IMG/VR virus record: IMGVR_UViG_2531839479_000006
Source: a virus
Lineage: Duplodnaviria > Heunggongvirae > Uroviricota > Caudoviricetes
Strand: one strand, 5' to 3'
DNA: 25,652 bases
Position numbers and translations under genes: made by a program. A model generated the notes under the pieces. The model was not told where the DNA came from and made no database searches. It saw only the letters and a list, made by a program, of their open reading frames with translations. Every line of letters starts with the position of its first letter. The first letter of the stretch is position 1. Below are positions 1-17,867 of this stretch, piece after piece.

Positions 1-1119
1 TCAAATAACCAACTTAACCCATTCCTGACCTCGAGTATCGTTATAGCGATCGGTGGTTGCCTGGACTTTATGTCCTAGTAATGTTTTTGTATCGATACCC
101 TGTGCACGGTACAGCCGTTCTGATAGAGAGCGTTGTTCATGAAATGTTGGCGGAGTTTTTCCTGCTGGTGGAATTATCCCAGCCAGATCCCGTGCTTTGG
201 CAAAGTAGTCGCTCAGGTTGTCTTTACTCATCGGCTTCGGTTGTTTCTGGTGCCGACTATGGATTAGATATGGACTTAATATTCTGTCTCGGCACCCATC
301 AATAACTTCTTTTAACGTTATCCCAATGGCATCACAGCGTAGTGTAAGCGGTAACGCCAGACGCATTCCGGTTTTTCCCTGGGTGATATGCAAGTGTTCG
401 TTCCACACATCTGAAAAACGCATGTGGCAAATGTCATCACGGCGCTGACCAGTAACAATCGCAAGAAGCATTGCGTTACGGATAAAGTGTTTTTCAGGCG
501 TTGCATTGTAAATTTTTTGCCAGTCTTCCATGGTGAGCCTGGCTCTGGTTACTTTAGGGATCGGTTTACGGGTAGCCTCCGGAGGATTCCATCCAGGAGG
601 AACTTCCCCTGCATGTTGTGCTTCTTTATAAATATCAACCCATAATCCACGATTTACTCTCGCTGTGCTGACCATGTCTTTATCCAGCCACTCATCCAGT
701 ATTAATGCAAAGTCTCTTACTTCCAGTTCTTTCAATGGGTGGTTTCCCAGACGGGAAACCAGGTATGCAGCCATTCGGGCTTTTTCTTTGTGAGTTGTAG
801 TTGCAATATCCCCATTTTTCAGTCGCGTGTCCTGTATTTTCAGATATCGATCAACCCATGCCTTTAATCTGATACCCCGACGTTTTGTTGCTGACGGACT
901 TTCATCAATTTTGCGCATGAAATATTCAGCTTCTGCTGCAGCTATTCGCTGATTGGCTGTGGAAGCGATTTTTTCTGCTTTGCCTTTGTCTGTTCCGAGA
1001 CCGTGAAATTTTCCAGTCACAGGGTTTTTATACTGGTAGTAAACCCTGCCAGTTCTGCGATCAAACTTTTCGTAAAGACCGGTTACGTCAGTGCTGTTTT
1101 TTCGTGGCCTCGGTGACAT
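1..1119 (-). CDS. int: Tyrosine recombinase, lambda-family phage integrase
   Basis: Complete 372-aa ORF ending at the window edge. C-terminal catalytic region follows the lambda Int pattern as I recall it (AIVTGQRRDD, HITQGKTG, PPTFHEQRSLSERLY, GHK...TDRY, ends EWVKLVI). Start overlaps the upstream xis-like ORF. Confidence 0.9.
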   Translation of the reverse strand: MSPRPRKNSTDVTGLYEKFDRRTGRVYYQYKNPVTGKFHGLGTDKGKAEKIASTANQRIAAAEAEYFMRKIDESPSATKRRGIRLKAWVDRYLKIQDTRLKNGDIATTTHKEKARMAAYLVSRLGNHPLKELEVRDFALILDEWLDKDMVSTARVNRGLWVDIYKEAQHAGEVPPGWNPPEATRKPIPKVTRARLTMEDWQKIYNATPEKHFIRNAMLLAIVTGQRRDDICHMRFSDVWNEHLHITQGKTGMRLALPLTLRCDAIGITLKEVIDGCRDRILSPYLIHSRHQKQPKPMSKDNLSDYFAKARDLAGIIPPAGKTPPTFHEQRSLSERLYRAQGIDTKTLLGHKVQATTDRYNDTRGQEWVKLVI

Positions 1120-1418: not shown

Positions 1419-3893
1419 TTAAAAATCAGCCTGATTCGGAATCAGTTTTTGCCAGATAGCTGAAACGTATTTTGCCTGGTAACGGGCGTCATCAAGTGCA
1501 TTATGGCGCTCACCTTCGAATGGAATAGCCGTTCTGGCATCGAAGTCTATGGCTTTCCCCAGCTCAACGATTGTGCGTACATCGCGATCGTTGTAGTAAC
1601 GCCACGGGCAGGGGATCCCCTGCCGTTCGTATGAACGGCGCAAAATCGTGTTGTCGAAGTTGGCTCCATTTCCCCAGACCTGAACAAAAAATTCACCGGA
1701 GTTTTCGTCGATAAATTCCCGCAATTGTAACAGTGCATCATCTAACGGGATTTCATCGGTCATAATGGCAGATTGCGCTTCGCGTGATTGCTTAAGCCAC
1801 CATTTAATGGTGTCTCGATCAATGACTCCGCCAGCAGTTTCCAGATCGATAGTCTTACTAAATTCCGGTCCCATATCTCCGGTTTGCGGATCGAAAAATA
1901 TTGCACCTATTGAGATAATCGGGGCATCAGGATTTTTTCCCATGGTTTCAAGGTCGATCATTAGATGGTCACACGTCCTACTGGCGGATGTGATTTCGTG
2001 ATGACCGTTCACCTTAATTGAGTGATCTGCCGTCTCGCCAGTTTCATTATCGCTATTGTGATGCTGATTGCCGCCAGTGTTCTTCTTGTTTGGATGTTCA
2101 GCGCCTTCCATTTCCTCCGGATCATCTTCCTGAACTTCAACCTGATACTCTTCATCGAATGTTTCCTGGTATGTTGCGTCGCCCATCACCGCGCCACAAT
2201 CAGGGCAGTTGCCGCCGCCGGTCTGACCGCAGGCGGTGCAGATCTTTTCCGGTTCCTGTTGCACTACTGGTTCAGGTTGTTTCGTTTCTGGCTCGTTTTG
2301 TAACGCATTTGGGCTGTTTTGTTCCGCTTTCTGGCCGTTCTGTTCCGTTTCTTGCTGGTTCTGGTTCACAGAATCGCGGGTTTCCATCCCCTTCACCCAT
2401 TTCGGATCATTCGGATCGCTAATTCCTGCAACAAATTCACCACGTGATACTGCAAGCAGTTCATCGGCGTCAGGCTGGCTGATATTGGCTGCCTGCATAA
2501 TGTTGTTTACTTCGTCAGCGGGAACTTTTACCGGCCCTGGTTGTGCGGTCGTGTCAGATGCACCAGTATTTTGTTGTGAACCTGAGTATGTACTGTTTTT
2601 GCGGACGAAATATTCTTCTTTCGTGATTTCAGTAGCCCCTGCAGCCAGTGCCTTATCCAGACCAGAAGGTTTGTTTGCGCGACCGTATTTTTCGCCGTCC
2701 TTATCGGTGAAAAGGAAGTAGAACGGTCCCTCACGCTCTACAGATGGTTCGTCTTCCACTTCGCATTCGGTTTTTTCGTTGTCCGGCATTGCCGTTTCCA
2801 CTGCATCAGTTTCTGGTACTGGTGACGGGAGAGTACCAGCTGTGCCCTGATTTGTTCCTTCGTCATCTTCAAACACGCCCTTGGTAGTCAGGTATTCAGT
2901 GATGTATTTGTTCAGTGCTACGGGATCTTTGTGAATGTCGATCGGACGCTCACGGACAAGACCAAAAATAGGCTGACGGTCGTAGCGAACGGCATCGGGT
3001 TGTTTGCGCATTGATGCGGAAATGCGCTTCCAGTCTTCGCGATCTTTGTCGATAACTTCATTTTTTGCCCAGCGATGGATGCTGCCGTCAATGTTTCCGG
3101 TATCAATATCGCCAGGCCAGAGAGCGCAGGCCAGTTCTTCATCCAGCGTTTTCCATGTCTGCTTGTATTCGCGACAAATGGCGGCAGTGACTGGGTTGAT
3201 TTTTCCTGCTGAGTTTTCAGTGTTCTGTTGATTGACTCTGGCGCTGGCGAGATCAACAACAGACGTGTATTTTCCAGTCTCTTTGCGCTCTGCGTCCTGC
3301 CGTTTTTTCCAGTTACGTAATTCAGCCTGAATTTCGGGCCATTTGGCACCCGGATTACATTTGTGTTTAACCCATCCGATAGCGAACAGTTTGCGTTCCG
3401 GATACATAGCGTTAATTTCAGGCGTTTTCATCAGTGCTTCAACGATATGCCCGTCAAAGGTAGCAACATCTTCCTGCAGTAATTCCTGCGCGTCAATCGC
3501 CATATCAACGGTGATGTTTTCACATGTACCGAACTTAACCAGGACCGCGTTCTGTACTTCAAGGGACAGCTTGTCAAAATTGACGTTCATCGGATCGGAT
3601 TCTGGTTCGACCGGAATAAAGGAAGCGGATTCCTCATCCCAGCGGTTTTCCTGCATATATTCAGCATCCCAGGAATCGAGGGCAGGGCGGGGTATACCGG
3701 GTTTATCCTCGCAAACAAGAAATTTATAAGCGCAGTCCTGAGCAGCCGGATAATGTTCCAGGAATTGCCAGTGAAATTTTGCGCGGGCGCGACGTTCATC
3801 ACCGGCTTCAATGGCAGTGGCTACAGCGACGGCACCTTCTTCCTTTATTGCCTGTTCGTCCGGAATAGCGGCGCAAATAAAGACTTTACTCAT
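1419..3893 (-). CDS. Prophage exonuclease, 824 aa, with C-terminal DnaQ-like DEDDh 3'-5' exonuclease domain and a central CxxC...CxxC motif
   Basis: C-terminal motifs read directly: IDLETMG (Exo I), WGNGANFDNTIL (Exo II), HNALDDARYQAKY (Exo III with His). Central CTACGQTGGGNCPDCG looks like a zinc ribbon. Sits where lambdoid phages carry exo/recombination genes. Confidence 0.75.
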   Translation of the reverse strand: MSKVFICAAIPDEQAIKEEGAVAVATAIEAGDERRARAKFHWQFLEHYPAAQDCAYKFLVCEDKPGIPRPALDSWDAEYMQENRWDEESASFIPVEPESDPMNVNFDKLSLEVQNAVLVKFGTCENITVDMAIDAQELLQEDVATFDGHIVEALMKTPEINAMYPERKLFAIGWVKHKCNPGAKWPEIQAELRNWKKRQDAERKETGKYTSVVDLASARVNQQNTENSAGKINPVTAAICREYKQTWKTLDEELACALWPGDIDTGNIDGSIHRWAKNEVIDKDREDWKRISASMRKQPDAVRYDRQPIFGLVRERPIDIHKDPVALNKYITEYLTTKGVFEDDEGTNQGTAGTLPSPVPETDAVETAMPDNEKTECEVEDEPSVEREGPFYFLFTDKDGEKYGRANKPSGLDKALAAGATEITKEEYFVRKNSTYSGSQQNTGASDTTAQPGPVKVPADEVNNIMQAANISQPDADELLAVSRGEFVAGISDPNDPKWVKGMETRDSVNQNQQETEQNGQKAEQNSPNALQNEPETKQPEPVVQQEPEKICTACGQTGGGNCPDCGAVMGDATYQETFDEEYQVEVQEDDPEEMEGAEHPNKKNTGGNQHHNSDNETGETADHSIKVNGHHEITSASRTCDHLMIDLETMGKNPDAPIISIGAIFFDPQTGDMGPEFSKTIDLETAGGVIDRDTIKWWLKQSREAQSAIMTDEIPLDDALLQLREFIDENSGEFFVQVWGNGANFDNTILRRSYERQGIPCPWRYYNDRDVRTIVELGKAIDFDARTAIPFEGERHNALDDARYQAKYVSAIWQKLIPNQADF

Positions 3894-6407: not shown

Positions 6408-7046
6408 TTAAATATCTTGTTGAATTTTAAAGCATACGCCCAATATGCAAGATAGATCATCCAGCATAATTGAAGGGTAGCGAGGATTCGTGGGGACTAA
6501 AAGAATATCCGGCCCTTCTATCTCCAGTTTACGAATGACAGGTGTTGTGGTCCCTTTGGGTAAGGCAAGGACAATATTTCCTGGTTGTACGGTTCGATCG
6601 GGATCAACAAAAACTGTTGAACCATTTGGGATGGAAACTCCCCCACCAGATGTTGACATACTGTCACTCTCTAGAACAACTGCAAAGGTATTGACCGGGA
6701 TTTCTCCGACAAGCTGCACACAAGAGGTTATTGAGGAATTTTTCATATAATCACTCCAGCTTGCTGCCTGCTGAAGTGATAGTAGCGGAACCGTTTTTAT
6801 CGGCGGTAAAGATAGATCAAGCGAATCACCTGTATTTAACTCTCCTCCATTAAGAAGCCAATTTTCGTTTACTTTCAATATTTTTGCCAGTGAACTTATG
6901 TAACGCGAGGACGGCGCTCCTCCACCGTTCATCCATTGACTTACGGAGCCTTTTGATGCGCCAGTGCCATTGACAAGGTCTTTGCCTTTCAGGTTTAGCG
7001 CATGCATACGTTGGGTTATGCGTTCAGATATAGTTTGCTTGCTCAT
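6408..7046 (-). CDS. CI-like prophage repressor (N-terminal HTH, C-terminal LexA/S24 autopeptidase domain)
   Basis: The C-terminus follows lambda CI closely (ESDSM...VFVDPDRTVQPGNIV...LVPTNPRYPSI and an RKL lysine motif). N-terminal HTH. Divergent from the cro-like gene. Confidence 0.85.
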   Translation of the reverse strand: MSKQTISERITQRMHALNLKGKDLVNGTGASKGSVSQWMNGGGAPSSRYISSLAKILKVNENWLLNGGELNTGDSLDLSLPPIKTVPLLSLQQAASWSDYMKNSSITSCVQLVGEIPVNTFAVVLESDSMSTSGGGVSIPNGSTVFVDPDRTVQPGNIVLALPKGTTTPVIRKLEIEGPDILLVPTNPRYPSIMLDDLSCILGVCFKIQQDI

Positions 7047-7062: not shown

Positions 7063-7092
7063 ACAGATGGTTTTGTTTCTTGACTTTCTTTG

Positions 7093-7108
7093 GTTTTGAT
7101 TATTAAAC
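7093..7108. promoter_or_regulatory. Operator site 2 (GTTTTGATTATTAAAC) overlapping the candidate rightward promoter
   Basis: Second copy of the dyad, overlapping the spacer and -10 region downstream of a TTGACT -35 (7079-7084), upstream of the cro-like gene. Confidence 0.4.
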
Positions 7109-7137
7109 TTTTGACGTTCAGTTTTATGGAGCGACTC

Positions 7138-7368
7138 ATGAAAAAATCAGAAGTATTAGGCTATTTTGGCGGAGTTGTTAAAACAGCCGCAGCTCTAGGA
7201 ACGTCAAAAACCACAGTCAGCATGTGGGGGGAAGAGGTTCCGTGGAAATGGGCGTTGCTAATTCAGGCAGTCACTGCCGGGGCGCTCAAATATGAGTTAC
7301 ACATACCGACGGTTGTCATTCCCGGTTCTGATCATAATCCGCCTTCTAACCAAGGGGGGGATTCATGA
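7138..7368 (+). CDS. Cro-like HTH regulator (YdaS-like)
   Basis: Small ORF divergent from the repressor. Start chosen at MKKSEVLG, which has GGAG 7 nt upstream. HTH-like segment VVKTAAALGTSKTTVSMW. Confidence 0.65.
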   Translation: MKKSEVLGYFGGVVKTAAALGTSKTTVSMWGEEVPWKWALLIQAVTAGALKYELHIPTVVIPGSDHNPPSNQGGDS

Positions 7369-7790
7369 AAATCAAGCATGAACACATCCGCATGGCGATG
7401 AATGCCTGGGCGCATCCGGACGGCGAAAAAGTACCGGCTGCGAAAATTACCAAAGCGTATTTCGAGCTGGGAATGACGTTCCCGGAACTGTATGACGACA
7501 GCCATCCGGAAGCCCTGGCTCGCAATACCCAGAAAATTTTCCGCTGGGTAGAGAAAGACACCCCTGATGCAGTTGAAAAAATTCAGGCGTTGTTACCAGC
7601 GATCGAAAAGGCAATGCCACCTTTGCTGGTGGCCAGAATGCGCAGCCACAGTTCAGCTTATTTTCGGGAGCTGGTGGAGACGCGGGAGCGACTGGTGAGA
7701 GACGCTGATGATTTTGTCGCAGTGGCAATCGCCGGTTTCAATCAGATGAACCGTGGTGGCCCGGCAGGAAATGCTGTGGCAGTACATTGA
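7365..7790 (+). CDS. CII-position protein, 141 aa (YdaT-like)
   Basis: Start overlaps the cro-like stop (ATGA). It sits where lambdoid phages have cII; resemblance to YdaT is by size and N-terminal MKIKHEHI only. Confidence 0.55.
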   Translation: MKIKHEHIRMAMNAWAHPDGEKVPAAKITKAYFELGMTFPELYDDSHPEALARNTQKIFRWVEKDTPDAVEKIQALLPAIEKAMPPLLVARMRSHSSAYFRELVETRERLVRDADDFVAVAIAGFNQMNRGGPAGNAVAVH

Positions 7791-7861: not shown

Positions 7862-8932
7862 ATGGCTAACGCCTGGCTCAGATTATGGCATGACATGCCA
7901 AATGACCCTAAGTGGCGAACAATTGCCAGGGTGTCAGGGCAGCCAATTGCAACAGTGATGGCAGTGTATATCCACCTCCTGGTGAGCGCGTCACGAAATG
8001 TCACGCGAGGTCACATTGATGTCACGACAGAAGATTTGGCAAGTGCGCTCGACGTGACAGAAGAGGTAATTGATTCAATTTTGCAGACGATGCAGGGGCG
8101 GGTACTTGATGGTGATTTAATCACTGGATGGGAAAAACGCCAGGTGCTGAAAGAGGACAACGGCAATATTTCGCAAACCGCAAAATCTCCGGCAGAGCGC
8201 AAGAGGGCGCAGCGAGAGAGGGAAAGAAAGCGGGAACAAAATGGCGATTGTCACGGCGAGTCACGAAATGTCACGCACATGTCACGACGAGTCACGACAG
8301 ATAAAGATACAGATAAAGATACAGATCAAGAAGATCAAAACACTATGGTCCATGGCGTAAAAAACGCCACGAACCAGGCAGGGGATGTTCAGACCGTCAC
8401 TCCTGGCCAGCCCGCAGGCACGACACCGGAAGCCGATTCAGCGTATGCGCTGAAAGCCGATTCGGGCGCTGTGCAGCAGGTGATGACCGCAAGGCAGGAG
8501 CAATCACACCAACTTCAGCAGCCTGAAGCCGATTCCGCCATTCAGCGGGAAGCCGATCGGGTAGTCCCGGAAAACACCGGGCAGCCTGTGGGACGAGTGG
8601 ATTATCCTGATGTGTTCGAACAGATCTGGCGGGAATACCCGTTGCGTGCTGGGGCAAACCCGAAGAAATCCGCTTTCAGTGCCTGGAAGGCCAGATTACG
8701 CGAGGGGGTGTCACCAGAGGCCATGCTGGATGGCGTGAGGCGTTACGCAAGATACCTTGCGGCTACCGGGAAAACGGGAACGGAATTTGTTCAGCGAGCG
8801 ACGACGTTTTTTGGACCGGACCGGAATTTTGAAAACCCCTGGCTGCTCCCGGTAAGCGGCACGAACAACCAGCGTTGTGTGAATCATATTTCTGAACCGG
8901 ATACCGAAATTCCACCGGGCTTCAGGGGGTAA
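7862..8932 (+). CDS. Replication initiation protein (O-like) containing the origin iterons
   Basis: ATG with AGAAGAGG upstream. Two clusters of GTCACG iterons and an AT-rich tandem repeat lie inside the coding sequence, as for lambda ori inside gene O. Confidence 0.65.
   Translation: MANAWLRLWHDMPNDPKWRTIARVSGQPIATVMAVYIHLLVSASRNVTRGHIDVTTEDLASALDVTEEVIDSILQTMQGRVLDGDLITGWEKRQVLKEDNGNISQTAKSPAERKRAQRERERKREQNGDCHGESRNVTHMSRRVTTDKDTDKDTDQEDQNTMVHGVKNATNQAGDVQTVTPGQPAGTTPEADSAYALKADSGAVQQVMTARQEQSHQLQQPEADSAIQREADRVVPENTGQPVGRVDYPDVFEQIWREYPLRAGANPKKSAFSAWKARLREGVSPEAMLDGVRRYARYLAATGKTGTEFVQRATTFFGPDRNFENPWLLPVSGTNNQRCVNHISEPDTEIPPGFRG
7990..8030. repeat. Iteron cluster 1: four GTCAC(G) repeats at 10-11 bp spacing
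   Basis: GTCACG at 7990, 8000 and 8021, GTCACA at 8010. The 17-mer GTCACGAAATGTCACGC is shared with cluster 2. Confidence 0.55.
8250..8340. repeat. Iteron cluster 2 plus AT-rich tandem repeat: candidate replication origin
   Basis: GTCACG at 8250, 8260, 8270, 8281 and 8291 (helical phasing), followed by GATAAAGATACA x2 and an A/T-rich run. Confidence 0.6.
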
Positions 8933-8972: not shown

Positions 8973-9395
8973 GTGGCAAAAGTTTTTACACAAGAAGAGC
9001 GAGAAAAAATTAAAGGGCAGGTTGTTGAACTCGTACGCCAGAGTGGGCGTGAGACGTTACGGCAACTGGAAGTCAAGACAGGTGCGACAAGATATCTGAT
9101 GAGCGTTCTCGCAAGAGAGCTGGTTGCCAGCGGCGATGTATACAACTCTGGTTACGGGTTATTCCCGTCTGAACAGGCGCGTAAGGACTGGCAAAATGCC
9201 CGTAAAAAGCTCTCAAGGGCAAAGCTGAAGAAACCATCTGCGGTTGATCCGGACCTTATCTGGTCATTACCTGACGGAGAAATACGTCGCTACGACAGGC
9301 GTCAGAACATAATCTGTCGCGAGTGCCGGAAGAGTGAGGTTATGCAGCGTGTGCTGGCATTTTATCAGGGTAATTTTCAGGAGGTGATGGCGTGA
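8973..9395 (+). CDS. Hypothetical protein, 140 aa, replication module
   Basis: ORF with a GTG start and GGAGGA upstream. Basic C-terminus with CxxC. Function unknown; it is not an obvious helicase loader. Confidence 0.45.
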   Translation: MAKVFTQEEREKIKGQVVELVRQSGRETLRQLEVKTGATRYLMSVLARELVASGDVYNSGYGLFPSEQARKDWQNARKKLSRAKLKKPSAVDPDLIWSLPDGEIRRYDRRQNIICRECRKSEVMQRVLAFYQGNFQEVMA

Positions 9396-9960: not shown

Positions 9961-10074
9961 TCCAAATCTGAATAATTAAATCCAGCACTGTAAATAAAAT
10001 TTAATCCTTAACCGGAGGGATTTCTGCACCCTCAGAACATCAGGAGGCCGCCCGAAAGGGCGGTGGAGATAATA

Positions 10075-10590
10075 ATGGAAATAACTAAAGAACGATTATT
10101 GGAAATAGCAAATCTTAGTGAAAGGGCATTAAGTGATGGGAGGATTATTTCTCCTGATGCTTATGAATCAGTTACAAGTATAGAAATAATAACGATGGCC
10201 AGGATGCTTCTTGCTCGCTTCAAAAAAGAATATAAAAAACAGGTAGATAGCAATGCTAATATATATGATATTTTGGACTGTTGGGGAGCTTGGGCTGTAG
10301 CTGGAAATAGTTCTATCAACTGGCAGCAAGTGGCTGATAAATATAAAGATGTTGTGCCTCATGGTAAAAAATTGCGTCGCCAGAGCAGCGATGATGAAGG
10401 GCGAGTGATTGATGAGTGGATATTGAGACTCAGACAATATAAAATAGATGAATATGAGTTAATTGTTGCCCACTTTGTAATAGGCGTTTCTTTGAGAAAG
10501 ATCGCAAAAAGAAAGAAATGTGCGGATGGGACTATTAGAAAAAAAATACAAGCAGCGATGGGAGTATTGGAGGGAGTATTAATGCTCTAA
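10075..10590 (+). CDS. Q-like regulator (antiterminator-Q family fold, C-terminal sigma-70 region-4-like HTH), AT-rich
   Basis: ATG with GGAG 6 nt upstream. Shares a W-G-x-W motif and a C-terminal basic HTH (SLRKIAKRKK...TIRKKI) with the prophage Q at 15304-15858 (WGRW ... MSKRKMAELL ... RNRI). Composition matches the AT-rich insertion. Confidence 0.55.
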   Translation: MEITKERLLEIANLSERALSDGRIISPDAYESVTSIEIITMARMLLARFKKEYKKQVDSNANIYDILDCWGAWAVAGNSSINWQQVADKYKDVVPHGKKLRRQSSDDEGRVIDEWILRLRQYKIDEYELIVAHFVIGVSLRKIAKRKKCADGTIRKKIQAAMGVLEGVLML

Positions 10591-10599
10591 CTGTTAGAG

Positions 10600-11820
10600 C
10601 TAAATAAAAATCTTCGCAAGAAATATTCCTGCTGCAATAGAACTTGGTAGCCAAGCCAAATACATAAATAACTTTATTGTATTATCACATTTGGTTTGGC
10701 TCTTTGATAGTTCATATAGAGCCTCATTAATGTCCTTCTTAAGGTCTTCTGGATAATTTTCATTGTTTTTTAGAAAAGGCATAAATGCTATATCTTTAGC
10801 ATGGTAAATATGTTTTAATTGTTTATCCTGATTGAGTAATACCATATATAAAATAAGTGAGCTTAACAATACACCTAATAAAACGAGTAACATTTCAGAT
10901 CTTGATGTTAGTTTTATAATCCCGAAGGATGCCAGTAAAGACACAGGGATTGATAATACTTTTGTCGTCAAATCAGTAATAAGTTTTGAGATTTTTTCAG
11001 CAAACTCTGCTTCAGACTTCGCAATTTCTTTTCGTGCCTTATGGAATGAAAAACCACTCATATACGTGGATAAATTATTTTCAAATAGCTTTACAAATTT
11101 ATCCCAATGGCAAATTAGGTTTTCAAAATCATATTTGTTATCGAGAATAAACTCCACTATGGTATTCCTGAAAATACCTGTTTTTTCTGCTTGATGGGGG
11201 ATTTGGGCGTTTTTTACATCTAAAAGACTCTTGATGATAGCATCATCAATGTCATTTATATTGAGCATCTTAGGTGTAATGCACGTTTCTAAAATAATAG
11301 ATGTTGATTTTGCGTCAGAATCTTTCACGAAAACTAAACGATAATTTGAAGATTCCGATTTTGTATCGTGAAAGTGCGCAATCTCAGCCAGGGAAGAAAT
11401 AATTGCACAAATTTTCTCGATTTTTATAATTTCGTCCGGTTTACTTGAATCAGACGGATGAAAATCCTCATCGATTATGTAATACTCTTTAGGAATTACA
11501 CCTTTCTTGAGTGAGTTTATACAAAGGAACTCTTGAATTGAGTTATAGAAACGTTCTGCTCCATTTTTAGGGGATATGTAAGTGTATGAGAATTTATCTC
11601 CAATTTTAATTGGGTGTGATTTTAAATCGTCTTCGTCAATGAACTCATTATTAATATCAACATCTTCAAAATAACCGTAGGCTTTATGTGAATTTACTAA
11701 CAAGTTTACCAAACGTTGATTGTTATTATTTATTTCAACAGTTGCAGAAAAAGAACGTCCGTCGAATTGGGGCTTCGATGATGCTCTATAAAAATCTACA
11801 ACCGTTGATAAATTAGCCAT
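10600..11820 (-). CDS. Membrane-anchored protein, ~406 aa: soluble N-terminal domain plus 2-3 C-terminal TM helices; candidate effector
   Basis: Long AT-rich ORF. C-terminal hydrophobic helices EMLLVLLGVLLSSLILYMVLL and LFMYLAWLPSSIAAGIFLAKIFI. Its ATG lies inside the last codons of the upstream gene (ATGGCTAA), indicating translational coupling. Confidence 0.8.
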   Translation of the reverse strand: MANLSTVVDFYRASSKPQFDGRSFSATVEINNNNQRLVNLLVNSHKAYGYFEDVDINNEFIDEDDLKSHPIKIGDKFSYTYISPKNGAERFYNSIQEFLCINSLKKGVIPKEYYIIDEDFHPSDSSKPDEIIKIEKICAIISSLAEIAHFHDTKSESSNYRLVFVKDSDAKSTSIILETCITPKMLNINDIDDAIIKSLLDVKNAQIPHQAEKTGIFRNTIVEFILDNKYDFENLICHWDKFVKLFENNLSTYMSGFSFHKARKEIAKSEAEFAEKISKLITDLTTKVLSIPVSLLASFGIIKLTSRSEMLLVLLGVLLSSLILYMVLLNQDKQLKHIYHAKDIAFMPFLKNNENYPEDLKKDINEALYELSKSQTKCDNTIKLFMYLAWLPSSIAAGIFLAKIFI

Positions 11821-12955
11821 TTTCTTTTCCACTATCCCTTATTTTTAAATTTTCTTTTACCACAGCGCTTAGTTTAGCCTTAAATTCAGCTGGTAAGTTT
11901 GTAAATGATAATCTTCCAGTTGTTTCATCGTACCACACATCATCATCAGCTGTCACTCCAAGGAGAGACTTGTCAAAATTAAATCCAATCTCATCAGTCT
12001 TAAAGGTGATGTTTTTAATGTCTTTCAACGCCCGTTTACTGATAACAAATTCAGTTGGGATTCTCACATTTTCACTATTTAAAAAAAGAATTAATTCGTG
12101 AGTGTAAGATTCTTTGGTAGACTCATCTAAATTTGTCATGTGACGTGCTGCAATTACTTCAATATCACTCAATCGGGCTGATAAATTTTTAGCTGCTTGT
12201 GTGTCTAAATATGCAATAACGTCATGTTTAAATCTATTGGCACATGCTTTAAGTTCTGGTTTTTGGTTAAAAAATTGTTTTGCGACAGTTGGTAGTTTTT
12301 TTGTGGCTTTTGCTGCTGCAAGTGATTTGTCGCATCCTATTGCTGCAATAAAATATGCTGATGTGGATTGACCCACTCCTTTACTTACGAAACTTAGATA
12401 ACTTAAGTCAATTTTTTCAGACTCATCAGCAGTTTTATATTGTTGGTAGAGATTGAAATTTATTCTTGCTGCTTGGTGTATTTTGGATAGATCCAAATGG
12501 ATCATTTCTTCAGGTTCGAGTTTGTTGCTGATAGTAACACCATTTTTCTTTTTAATCATTGCAATTAAAAAGAATTTATTGTTATTTACAATATAGTCAC
12601 AAAACACAATAAAACCACCAGATGACCAAGGTTCTTCTTTGGCTTTTTTTACAAGTTGCTTCATCACTTCAATAGAAAAAGGCACAAACTTTTCATTAAT
12701 GTTATCCTCTGACTGAGAATACTCTTCAAATATTGATGGCACAGGCCCTTGTTCTGTTTTCTCCTCTTTAAAAACGCCATAATGTGCAGAATTGCCTTTG
12801 GTTCCATATAAAGATGAAATGTCTTGAATAAGTTTTATAACAATTGGATTGGTTTTATCGAGAGGAGTGGATCTAAGCTGATACGGCTTAGAAAAATCAA
12901 AATCCTTTTTTGCTTCTTTAATTAGTTCATGAACGATAACTTGCTTAATTTCCAT
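11813..12955 (-). CDS. NdpA/YejK-family (nucleoid-associated protein, 37-kDa family) homologue, diverged, 380 aa
   Basis: Blocks match E. coli YejK as I recall it: IVHELIK vs ALHQLIK, SGGFIVFCDY vs DGGFVLFCHY, YLSFVSKGVGQ vs YLTFLKGRVGR, and the C-terminal GFNFD...LLG...D.TTGRLSF vs [30 protein letters not shown] upstream. Confidence 0.8.
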   Translation of the reverse strand: MEIKQVIVHELIKEAKKDFDFSKPYQLRSTPLDKTNPIVIKLIQDISSLYGTKGNSAHYGVFKEEKTEQGPVPSIFEEYSQSEDNINEKFVPFSIEVMKQLVKKAKEEPWSSGGFIVFCDYIVNNNKFFLIAMIKKKNGVTISNKLEPEEMIHLDLSKIHQAARINFNLYQQYKTADESEKIDLSYLSFVSKGVGQSTSAYFIAAIGCDKSLAAAKATKKLPTVAKQFFNQKPELKACANRFKHDVIAYLDTQAAKNLSARLSDIEVIAARHMTNLDESTKESYTHELILFLNSENVRIPTEFVISKRALKDIKNITFKTDEIGFNFDKSLLGVTADDDVWYDETTGRLSFTNLPAEFKAKLSAVVKENLKIRDSGKENG

Positions 12956-13074: not shown

Positions 13075-13230
13075 TAGTTAAACACACTACCGCTGTAGAG
13101 TTGTTGTCATTAAATTGCGTCATAAGTAGAATTGCTGCGGGTGCTTGAGGCTATCTGTCTCAGGCATGAACACCAAAAGGCAGATAGAGAAAAGCCCCAC
13201 CCGACTATAAATCGAAGTGAGGCCAGTCTT

Positions 13231-13437
13231 ATGTCTCGACAACTGAAGATTAGCCTCTTACGTGCCGAAAGGCAAGGAGAAGCAGGCTATGAAGCAGCAA
13301 AAGGCGATGTTAATCGCCCTGATCGTCATCTGTTTAACCGTCATAGTGACGGCACTGATAACGAGGAAAGACCTCTGCGAGGTACGAATCCGAACCGGCC
13401 AGACGGAGGTCGCTGTCTTCACAGCTTACGAACCTGA
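13231..13437 (+). CDS. mok: Mok-like overlapping reading frame of the hok locus
   Basis: ORF starting MSRQLK with GAAGTGAGG upstream, overlapping hok in another frame as in hok/sok loci. Confidence 0.45.
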   Translation: MSRQLKISLLRAERQGEAGYEAAKGDVNRPDRHLFNRHSDGTDNEERPLRGTNPNRPDGGRCLHSLRT

Positions 13438-17617: not shown

Positions 17618-17693
17618 GGCCCTTTAGCTCAGTGGTGAGAGCGAGCGACTCATAATCGCCAGGTCGCTGGTTCAAATCCAGCAAGGGCCACCA
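17618..17693 (+). tRNA. tRNA with CAU anticodon, Ile2-like (lysidine type)
   Basis: Cloverleaf folded by hand: acceptor GGCCCTT/AAGGGCC, D-arm GCTC/GAGC, anticodon loop CTCATAA, T-loop TTCAAAT, CCA encoded. Close to E. coli ileX as I recall it. Confidence 0.85.
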
Positions 17694-17700
17694 TCACATA

Positions 17701-17777
17701 CCGCCATTAGCTCATCAGGATAGAGCGCCAGCCTTCGAAGCTGGTTGCGCGGGGTTCGAGTCCTCGATGGCGGTCCA
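17701..17777 (+). tRNA. tRNA-Arg (anticodon UCG)
   Basis: Acceptor CCGCCAT/ATGGCGG (C1-G72), D-arm GCTC/GAGC, anticodon stem CCAGC/GCTGG with loop CTTCGAA, T-loop TTCGAGT, CCA encoded. Confidence 0.75.
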
Positions 17778-17790
17778 TTATCTGTACCCT

Positions 17791-17867
17791 GCGTTGTTAG
17801 CTCAGCCGGACAGAGCAATTGCCTTCTAAGCAATCGGTCACTGGTTCGAATCCAGTACAACGCGCCA
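17791..17867 (+). tRNA. tRNA-Arg (anticodon UCU)
   Basis: Acceptor GCGTTGT/ACAACGC, anticodon stem ATTGC/GCAAT with loop CTTCTAA, T-loop TTCGAAT, CCA encoded. Confidence 0.85.

Follow-up and report, generated by a model that had tools for sequence, protein, structure and literature searches.

Within the tailed-phage record IMGVR_UViG_2531839479_000006, a stretch of 25,652 nucleotides (nt) analysed here at its full length and referred to as the window, positions 7990-8376 most likely constitute the vegetative replication origin of the phage, where a series of GTCACG cores would be read by the N-terminal domain of the protein that the same DNA encodes. The gene in question (7862-8932) is, as its profile matches indicate, the replication initiator gene of a lambdoid immunity and replication module. 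Its product matches phrog_3729 ('replication initiation protein') over the full length with an E value of 2.8e-256, and its relatives are named 'phage replisome organizer' at NCBI. An origin written inside the gene of its own initiator, functionally an oriλ arrangement, is supported by sequence comparison, from which we also infer initiator binding, unwinding and helicase recruitment. What carries the origin assignment is that the cores are kept at the level of the DNA, that they switch in concert among relatives, and that the second of two core clusters joins an A-rich tract at a conserved junction.

Iteron clusters under DNA-level selection

The initiator gene contains two runs of direct cores (Table 1). 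Cluster 1, with spacings of 10, 10 and 11 base pairs (bp), encodes amino acids (aa) 43-55, and cluster 2 is spaced 10, 10, 11 and 10 bp. Both share the 17-mer GTCACGAAATGTCACGC, found at 7990-8006 and 8260-8276, and cluster 2 is followed by an A/T-rich run in which Tandem Repeats Finder detected 2.9 copies of the 12-mer ACAGATAAAGAT at 8297-8331. These elements had already been picked out in a previous sequence-only reading, which listed four GTCAC(G) repeats at 7990-8030 and five at 8250-8300, 10-11 bp apart, and all of them were recovered. Its proposal that they form an origin inside the initiator gene is supported by DNA-level selection, by the placement of cluster 2 together with the A-rich tract in the protein's linker, and by an oriλ-like geometry. 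That reading, whose extent was 7986-8340, missed an inverted core at 8053-8058 and, just past its stated end, an inverted repeat at 8346-8376; the origin probably extends to about 8376.

Chance does not explain the clustering. Nine of the 15 GTCACG hexamers of the window fall inside 307 bp, and on the same strand GTCAC occurs 5 times in 50 bp and 9 times in 310 bp, whereas 300 simulations of the window under a first-order Markov model never exceeded 3 and 5, respectively. Resampling of synonymous codons over codons 1-160 yielded 1.5 ± 1.1 copies of GTCAC (maximum of 6 in 3000 trials), compared to the 9 observed. Moreover, the cores fall in all three frames, as xxG-TCA-CGx (Ser-Arg), GTC-ACG (Val-Thr) and xGT-CAC (Gly/Cys-His), which makes the 10-11-bp period a property of the DNA.

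Codon choice was followed in the genes of 19 GTCAC-type relatives that align without gaps. In cluster 1, Val47 is encoded by GTC (19/19), Thr48 by ACG (19/19), Gly50 by GGT (19/19) and His51 by CAC (18/18), and the mean fraction of the top codon reaches 0.92 in comparison with 0.51 elsewhere in the domain (p = 5.6e-6). Among the third bases of the cluster, that of Arg49 alone varies freely, and it is located in the spacer between two cores. Altogether, this pattern indicates that the repeats are under selection at the DNA level. A repeat of the protein, for which the peptide SRNVT encoded in both clusters would speak, was rejected on account of the three reading frames, the frozen synonymous sites and the failure of synonymous resampling to reproduce the array. 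Plasmid centromeres such as parC of R1 also consist of two clusters of repeats about 10-11 bp apart, a precedent for some other DNA transaction such as packaging, partition or binding of a host factor. However, the λ-type gpA terminase and portal genes of the window lie far from the repeats, there are no par genes in the phage, and a host reader is excluded by the different cores used within one host genus (see below). Explanations of this kind, the protein-level repeat included, are extremely improbable.

Within the initiator gene, the 36-nt window with the lowest guanine-cytosine (GC) content is 8297-8332, the start of the A-rich tract, with a GC of 0.28 and 75% purine on the plus strand. 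Read on the minus strand, the palindrome at its right scores as an intrinsic-terminator-like hairpin of 13 pairs, 7 of them GC, and the complement of the tract, rich in T, comes next. Such a hairpin could keep antisense transcripts from entering the origin or be a by-product of the origin anatomy. Promoter and terminator scans gave counts no higher than chance, and single-strand DNA folding of 8240-8390 was unremarkable (z = -1.0). As for the inverted core at 8053-8058, most GTCAC-type loci have a GTGAC at the corresponding point of the gene (about nt 192) or displaced from it by a few nt, which may reflect conserved Asp-Val-Thr codons only.

Conservation and covariation among relatives

A genome-wide scan with conserved N-terminal peptides collected 58 homologous loci from Gamma-, Beta- and Alphaproteobacteria, Acidobacteria and one planctomycete, which share a common layout: 2-6 cores (mostly 3-4) at codons ~43-55, mostly 3-6 cores some 230 bp beyond, then a purine-rich tract of the (AGATAA)n kind, as a rule set off by a constant 5 nt, and a short palindrome. 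A scan of IMG/VR returned 80 loci, every one of them a ~100% identical copy from E. coli, and added no diversity. Runs, shared cores and neighbouring families were counted over 54 loci. A run of at least three cores occupies the cluster 2 position in 40 of them, and in 37 of these 40 that core recurs at the cluster 1 position. Inside the runs the spacing is 10 bp in 169 and 11 bp in 36 of 213 cases (205/213 together).

The core itself differs between loci, being GTCAC in 22, GAACGC in 18, TAACGC in 3 and TGACGC in 1, and two loci (L024 and L025) carry GTAACG in both orientations. Proteins of the 22 GTCAC loci are just 60-75% identical and come from hosts with a GC of 34-63%, and their cores are found at the relative positions of the window (~nt 128-159 and 368-498 of the gene). 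The type of core tracks the initiator subfamily (GTCACG, GAACGC, GTAACGC or GTGACGC), and both clusters of a gene share one core and switch together. In this regard, the earlier idea that the iterons report the specificity of the initiator finds correlative support, and the repeats would match their cognate initiator, with linkage contributing to the correlation. Different cores occur within a single host genus (Acidovorax L015 versus L055 and L056; Pseudomonas L012 and L026 versus L032), so the reader is encoded by the phage and is not a host protein. The most widespread family of neighbouring genes reaches at most 20 of the 54 loci, which leaves the N-domain as the only constant partner of the repeats.

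Some relatives have cluster 2 without cluster 1 (L037, L039 and L053), which makes cluster 2 the presumed origin core and cluster 1 probably an accessory. Repeats at the cluster 2 position only are also seen in L044, from a Serratia metagenome-assembled genome, and L059, from Pantoea, where the N-domain is fused to a different C-terminal part, the repeats are of the TACTACGTA type and there is no clear A-rich tract; both may represent a diverged or repurposed branch of the family. The number of iterons shifts in steps of 21 bp, since two iterons (10 + 11 bp) equal 7 codons and keep the frame, as exemplified by the insertion HMSRRVT in cluster 2 of the window (8271-8291) and, for the E. albertii copy (L006), by TCHGVSL in cluster 1, at nt 148-168 of its gene. 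The O protein of Stx phages offers a parallel, with in-frame insertions of 13 aa there and 7 aa here: two extra λ-type iterons add 13 aa to O (PMC7466680).

The A-rich tract is a regular companion of cluster 2. In 84% of the loci the gene's lowest-GC 36-nt window comes directly after this cluster, and that window is purine-rich on the coding strand (mean 77%), typically as (AGATAA)n, (AGATAC)n or (AGAGAAG)n. The 42 nt past the last core have a GC of 0.32, compared to 0.56 for the genes, and are 75% purine. In hosts with a GC of at least 55%, Asp codons show a GAT:GAC ratio of 58:4 in the tract versus 178:288 elsewhere (p = 1e-17), and Lys codons an AAA:AAG ratio of 36:17 versus 128:195, which argues that AT-richness was selected in the DNA and is not a by-product of an Asp-Lys linker. 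The junction is regular as well: in 27 of 40 loci the first AGA starts 5 nt past the A in the ACG of the final core. After the tract, palindromes that are short and mostly GC-rich occur more often than in control windows (mean of 7.0 paired bases versus 5.7, p = 5e-10). In many relatives (L009, L011, L016, L017, L020 and others) the palindrome is CCCCC-N(2-6)-GGGGG, some 40-90 nt past cluster 2, and encodes a recurring PPxPPRG peptide; here, too, a DNA element seems to have shaped the protein sequence of the linker.

The arrays might instead be operators by which the initiator, or another regulator of the phage, autoregulates or blocks rightward transcription, with replication starting elsewhere. 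Iteron-binding initiators often autoregulate, the sites lie within a gene that is itself downstream of the early promoters, and cluster 1 has no neighbouring A-rich tract. Nevertheless, operators leave unexplained the conserved junction of cluster 2 with the A-rich tract, the selection for AT in high-GC hosts, the trailing palindrome and the match to oriλ geometry, and no other iteron-like array was seen near the gene. Operators in place of an origin are improbable, and autoregulation could coexist with origin function.

A different proposal, in our opinion highly improbable, would be that the conserved DNA is mainly a recombination junction, its repeats and (GATAAA)n tract persisting by allowing phages to exchange C-terminal domains. 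It is true that the conserved N-domain gives way to the highly variable C-terminal part just past the A-rich tract, and that BLAST matches to other phages start or stop within the gene, but a junction needs neither 10-11-bp phasing nor identical cores in two clusters, and neither core switching nor frozen synonymous sites in the N-domain. We prefer to see the mosaic boundary as resulting from a conserved origin.

The initiator, its proposed mechanism and known origins

No Pfam family reached threshold with the initiator, whose gene is often annotated as encoding a 'hypothetical protein'. In the AlphaFold model a confidently predicted, helical N-domain, which comprises a helix-turn-helix and a wing formed by a β-hairpin, is followed by a basic helix, which may contribute to DNA contact or oligomerisation, and by a linker (aa 129-241) that is predicted to be disordered, its pLDDT values staying below 50 from aa 129. 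The DNA coding for this linker contains cluster 2, the A-rich tract and the palindrome. Residues S134, R135, V137 and T138, encoded by cluster 2, are invariant in aligned homologues, though the linker is predicted to be disordered. Cluster 1 codes for the end of helix 29-49 plus the next loop, the sole hypervariable and indel-tolerant spot of an otherwise strongly conserved N-domain. Residue 117 of the basic helix (8210-8212) is Q in GTCAC-type proteins and W in GAACGC-type ones, and a 9-residue segment, GNxxxxAKS (aa 101-109; 8162-8188), is restricted to the GTCAC type; both may be determinants of specificity or do no more than mark the lineage.

The C-terminal part is modular in the family, where DnaT-like PF17948 domains, the domain of the window protein and others are found. 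The window protein's own C-terminal domain matches PHROG families named 'DnaD-like helicase loader', 'primosomal protein' and 'replication protein', and gave only short fragments when used to look for homologues. The tail QRCVNHISEPDTEIPPGFRG aligns by phmmer with the DnaT chains 6aep, 2ru8 and 9zbt of the PDB and with positions 156-179 of the NF002770 profile. This likeness is limited to the last 20-25 residues, and PF17948, the three-helix single-stranded-DNA-binding domain of DnaT, has no match in the window protein, whereas relatives such as P0069 do match it. The same tail ends several members of the N-domain family, as well as O-like initiators with unrelated N-domains (phages HannyBb and PhiR5_2; L002 and L003), and may be a portable peptide that docks onto host primosome or helicase-loading proteins.

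In the proposed mechanism, the winged-helix-like N-domain would bind one core per helical turn, head to tail and on one face of the DNA. An oligomer assembled on cluster 2 (8250-8296) would destabilise the adjoining A-rich tract (8297-8345), and cluster 1 (7990-8026), about 225 bp upstream, would add bound protein and probably loop or wrap the DNA in between, acting as an accessory enhancer and not as the origin core. The C-terminal domain and the DnaT-like tail would then recruit the host helicase machinery, a step postulated because no P, DnaC or DnaB homologue is encoded by the phage in the window. No helicase, helicase loader or primase gene is present from int to portal (window 1-25006).

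Several likenesses to oriλ are apparent. Both origins are placed inside the initiator gene, in the linker between a DNA-binding N-domain and a recruiting C-domain, and in λ an inverted repeat also follows the A-rich tract. Iterons of λ occupy nt 349-433 of O and are followed by AAAAGACACTATTACAAAAGAAAAAAGAAAAGATTATT, and cluster 2 with its A-rich tract spans nt 389-484 of the window gene, likewise in the linker. Ten relatives of the window initiator have a λ P-like partner, and the order of an iteron array and then an A-rich, strand-skewed tract is common to both origins (PMC7466680). The earlier description of the locus as a λ O/ori arrangement with a different iteron holds for this order and its placement in the linker but not for the protein, which lies outside the λ O family: PF04492 (Phage_rep_O) had no match in it even at E <= 10, hhalign of the N-domain alignment against λ O gave a probability of 0.1, and neither sequence nor profile similarity was detected. 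It also fails for the iterons. Those of λ are 18-19-bp sites with internal dyad symmetry, occupied by O dimers and ~20-24 bp apart in one array, whereas the window has asymmetric direct cores of 6-7 bp, 10-11 bp apart and in a single orientation, in two arrays, the additional one within the N-domain coding region. λ has a P gene and the window phage does not; a LygF/DUF977 gene takes the place of a helicase-recruiting partner downstream. The general anatomy of iteron-type origins is nonetheless present, with phased direct repeats beside an AT-rich element, in cis to the initiator gene.

Other systems share parts of this design. The 'replisome organizer' G38P of SPP1 has oriL inside gene 38. 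Against G38P, hhalign of the N-domain returned nothing, and the DnaD-like N-domain families aligned to the window's N-domain over the whole model but below threshold (TIGR01714, 15.5 bits for a cut-off of 49.8, E = 0.015; PF09681, 12.8 bits for a cut-off of 23.3, E = 0.12). SPP1 encodes its own loader and helicase and the window phage neither. The satellite phage P4 resembles the window in having short iterons in two clusters: its ori and crr hold 8-bp iterons in two separate clusters, both bound by α and both with a part in replication, with looping between them. On the other hand, α is a primase-helicase with a different DNA-binding domain, and the P4 clusters are ~4.5 kb apart and outside the sequence coding for the DNA-binding domain of the initiator.

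By analogy only, the layout also recalls the DnaA boxes and DnaA-trios of the bacterial basal unwinding system, where same-orientation duplex sites precede, at a fixed distance, a short-period A-rich repeat; such an order would fit an oligomer that grows out of the duplex sites along a single strand. The period is 6 nt (AGATAA) here and 3 in the trios, (AGATAA)n is at odds with the trio consensus, and the initiator is not an AAA+ protein. There are no DnaA boxes near the repeats, and the two TTWTNCACA matches of the window lie elsewhere, a count at chance level. Extending the analogy, the locus might be the phage counterpart of the bacterial box-plus-trio module. A head-to-tail winged-helix filament would nucleate on the 10-bp-phased cores and grow, keeping its register, along one strand of (AGATAA)n with its 6-nt period and constant 5-nt offset, making the tract a sequence-specific single-strand element and more than AT-rich DNA; the upstream cluster, placed in the very DNA that codes for the reader domain, would close a ~230-bp loop that stores torsional stress, and the DnaT-like tail would pass the opened DNA on to the restart or helicase-loading machinery of the host, with no loader from the phage. 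We hold this elaborate version to be conceivable but rather unlikely.

Some points weigh against the origin assignment. Binding, unwinding and autonomous replication are predictions for every member of the family, and helicase recruitment without a phage-encoded loader is a conjecture. The covariation between N-domain and repeats is partly due to physical linkage and shared descent. Moreover, the A-rich tract of the window is only moderately AT-rich (GC 0.28-0.38; 60-nt windows over 8280-8369 give 0.37-0.38). Cluster 1 has no adjoining A-rich tract, and its role is uncertain given its absence from a few relatives.

Distribution, implications and prophage setting

Of 5426 complete E. coli genomes, 2078 (38%) carry the segment 7862-8345, in up to 6 copies each, which places it among the commonest prophage replication modules of this species. 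The N-domain family comprises ~2250 clusters at 50% identity from several phyla. It was found in 25 of 50,697 phage records, no model phage among them, and in the plasmid collection it had 11 records only, including two circular phage-like episomes of P. aeruginosa of ~51 kb, which give no direct support to plasmid-type replication. Literature searches by keyword or exact repeat strings returned no description of this origin, which appears to be a widespread type undescribed so far. For the 'Eru' modules of Stx phages, replication proteins are unstudied according to the authors (PMC8951638), and the Eru papers classify replication genes without discussing origins.

With the origin and its specificity types known, prophage replication modules, including the 'Eru' modules, could be typed, and cross-activation or incompatibility between co-resident prophages could be predicted: those with the same type of initiator and iteron could activate each other or compete. 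The family would also provide initiators and iterons that vary together in nature, suited to studying how a winged-helix domain reads a 6-7-bp core, and, if the reading is right, an origin cassette of a single gene that needs no helicase loader from the phage. The downstream partner varies in the family, being a λ P-like gene directly downstream in the 10 relatives mentioned above, a Toprim/DnaB-like gene in 11, and a DnaC-like gene in PhiR5_2, whose C-domain is that of the window protein.

Table 1. Coordinates of the elements of the candidate origin, its initiator and the surrounding prophage genes
Feature	Position	Strand	Remarks
Integrase gene	1-1119	-	
Exonuclease gene	1419-3893	-	
cI-like S24 repressor gene	6408-7046	-	
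cro	7090-7368		
cII/YdaT-like gene	7365-7790		
Initiator gene, 356 aa	7862-8932	+	Occupies the O position of the lambdoid early operon
N-terminal winged-helix-like domain (aa 1-93)	7862-8140	+	Presumed iteron reader
Iteron cluster 1, four direct cores	7990-8026	+	7990-7995, 8000-8005, 8010-8015 (GTCACA), 8021-8026; GTCACG except at 8010
Inverted single core	8053-8058	-	CGTGAC on the plus strand
Basic helix (aa 110-127), AERKRAQRERERKRE	8189-8242	+	Helix 110-127 of the AlphaFold model
Iteron cluster 2, five direct GTCACG cores	8250-8296	+	Starts 8250, 8260, 8270, 8281, 8291
A-rich, purine-skewed tract	8297-8345	+	Presumed DNA-unwinding element; GATC sites at 8324-8327 and 8333-8336
Inverted repeat TGGTCCATGGCGT / ACGCCACGAACCA	8346-8376		13-nt arms, 5-nt loop; to the right of the tract
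Helical C-terminal domain (aa 245-333)	8594-8860	+	pLDDT 92-98; presumed recruiter of host replication machinery
C-terminal tail QRCVNHISEPDTEIPPGFRG (aa 337-356)	8870-8929	+	Resembles the C-terminus of E. coli DnaT
LygF/DUF977 (Ren-like) gene	8973-9395		Next gene after the initiator
Q-like antiterminator genes, two	10063-10590 and 15304-15858		
Gene pair between the two Q-like genes	10600-12955	-	410-aa protein of unknown function and NA37 nucleoid-associated-family protein
sok antitoxin RNA, hok/sok type	13139-13294		Rfam RF01794, 122 bits
Three tRNA genes (Met-CAT, Arg-TCG, Arg-TCT)	17618-17867		

By its gene content from int to portal, the window is a lambdoid prophage, and the order of cI, cro, the cII-like gene, the initiator and the Ren-like gene is that of λ (Table 1). 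No stx gene is present in the window. The gene pair on the minus strand at 10600-12955 looks like an inserted moron or defence island, and the sok RNA and the tRNA cluster are located upstream of the late genes' region, a placement shared with many lambdoid and Stx-type prophages.

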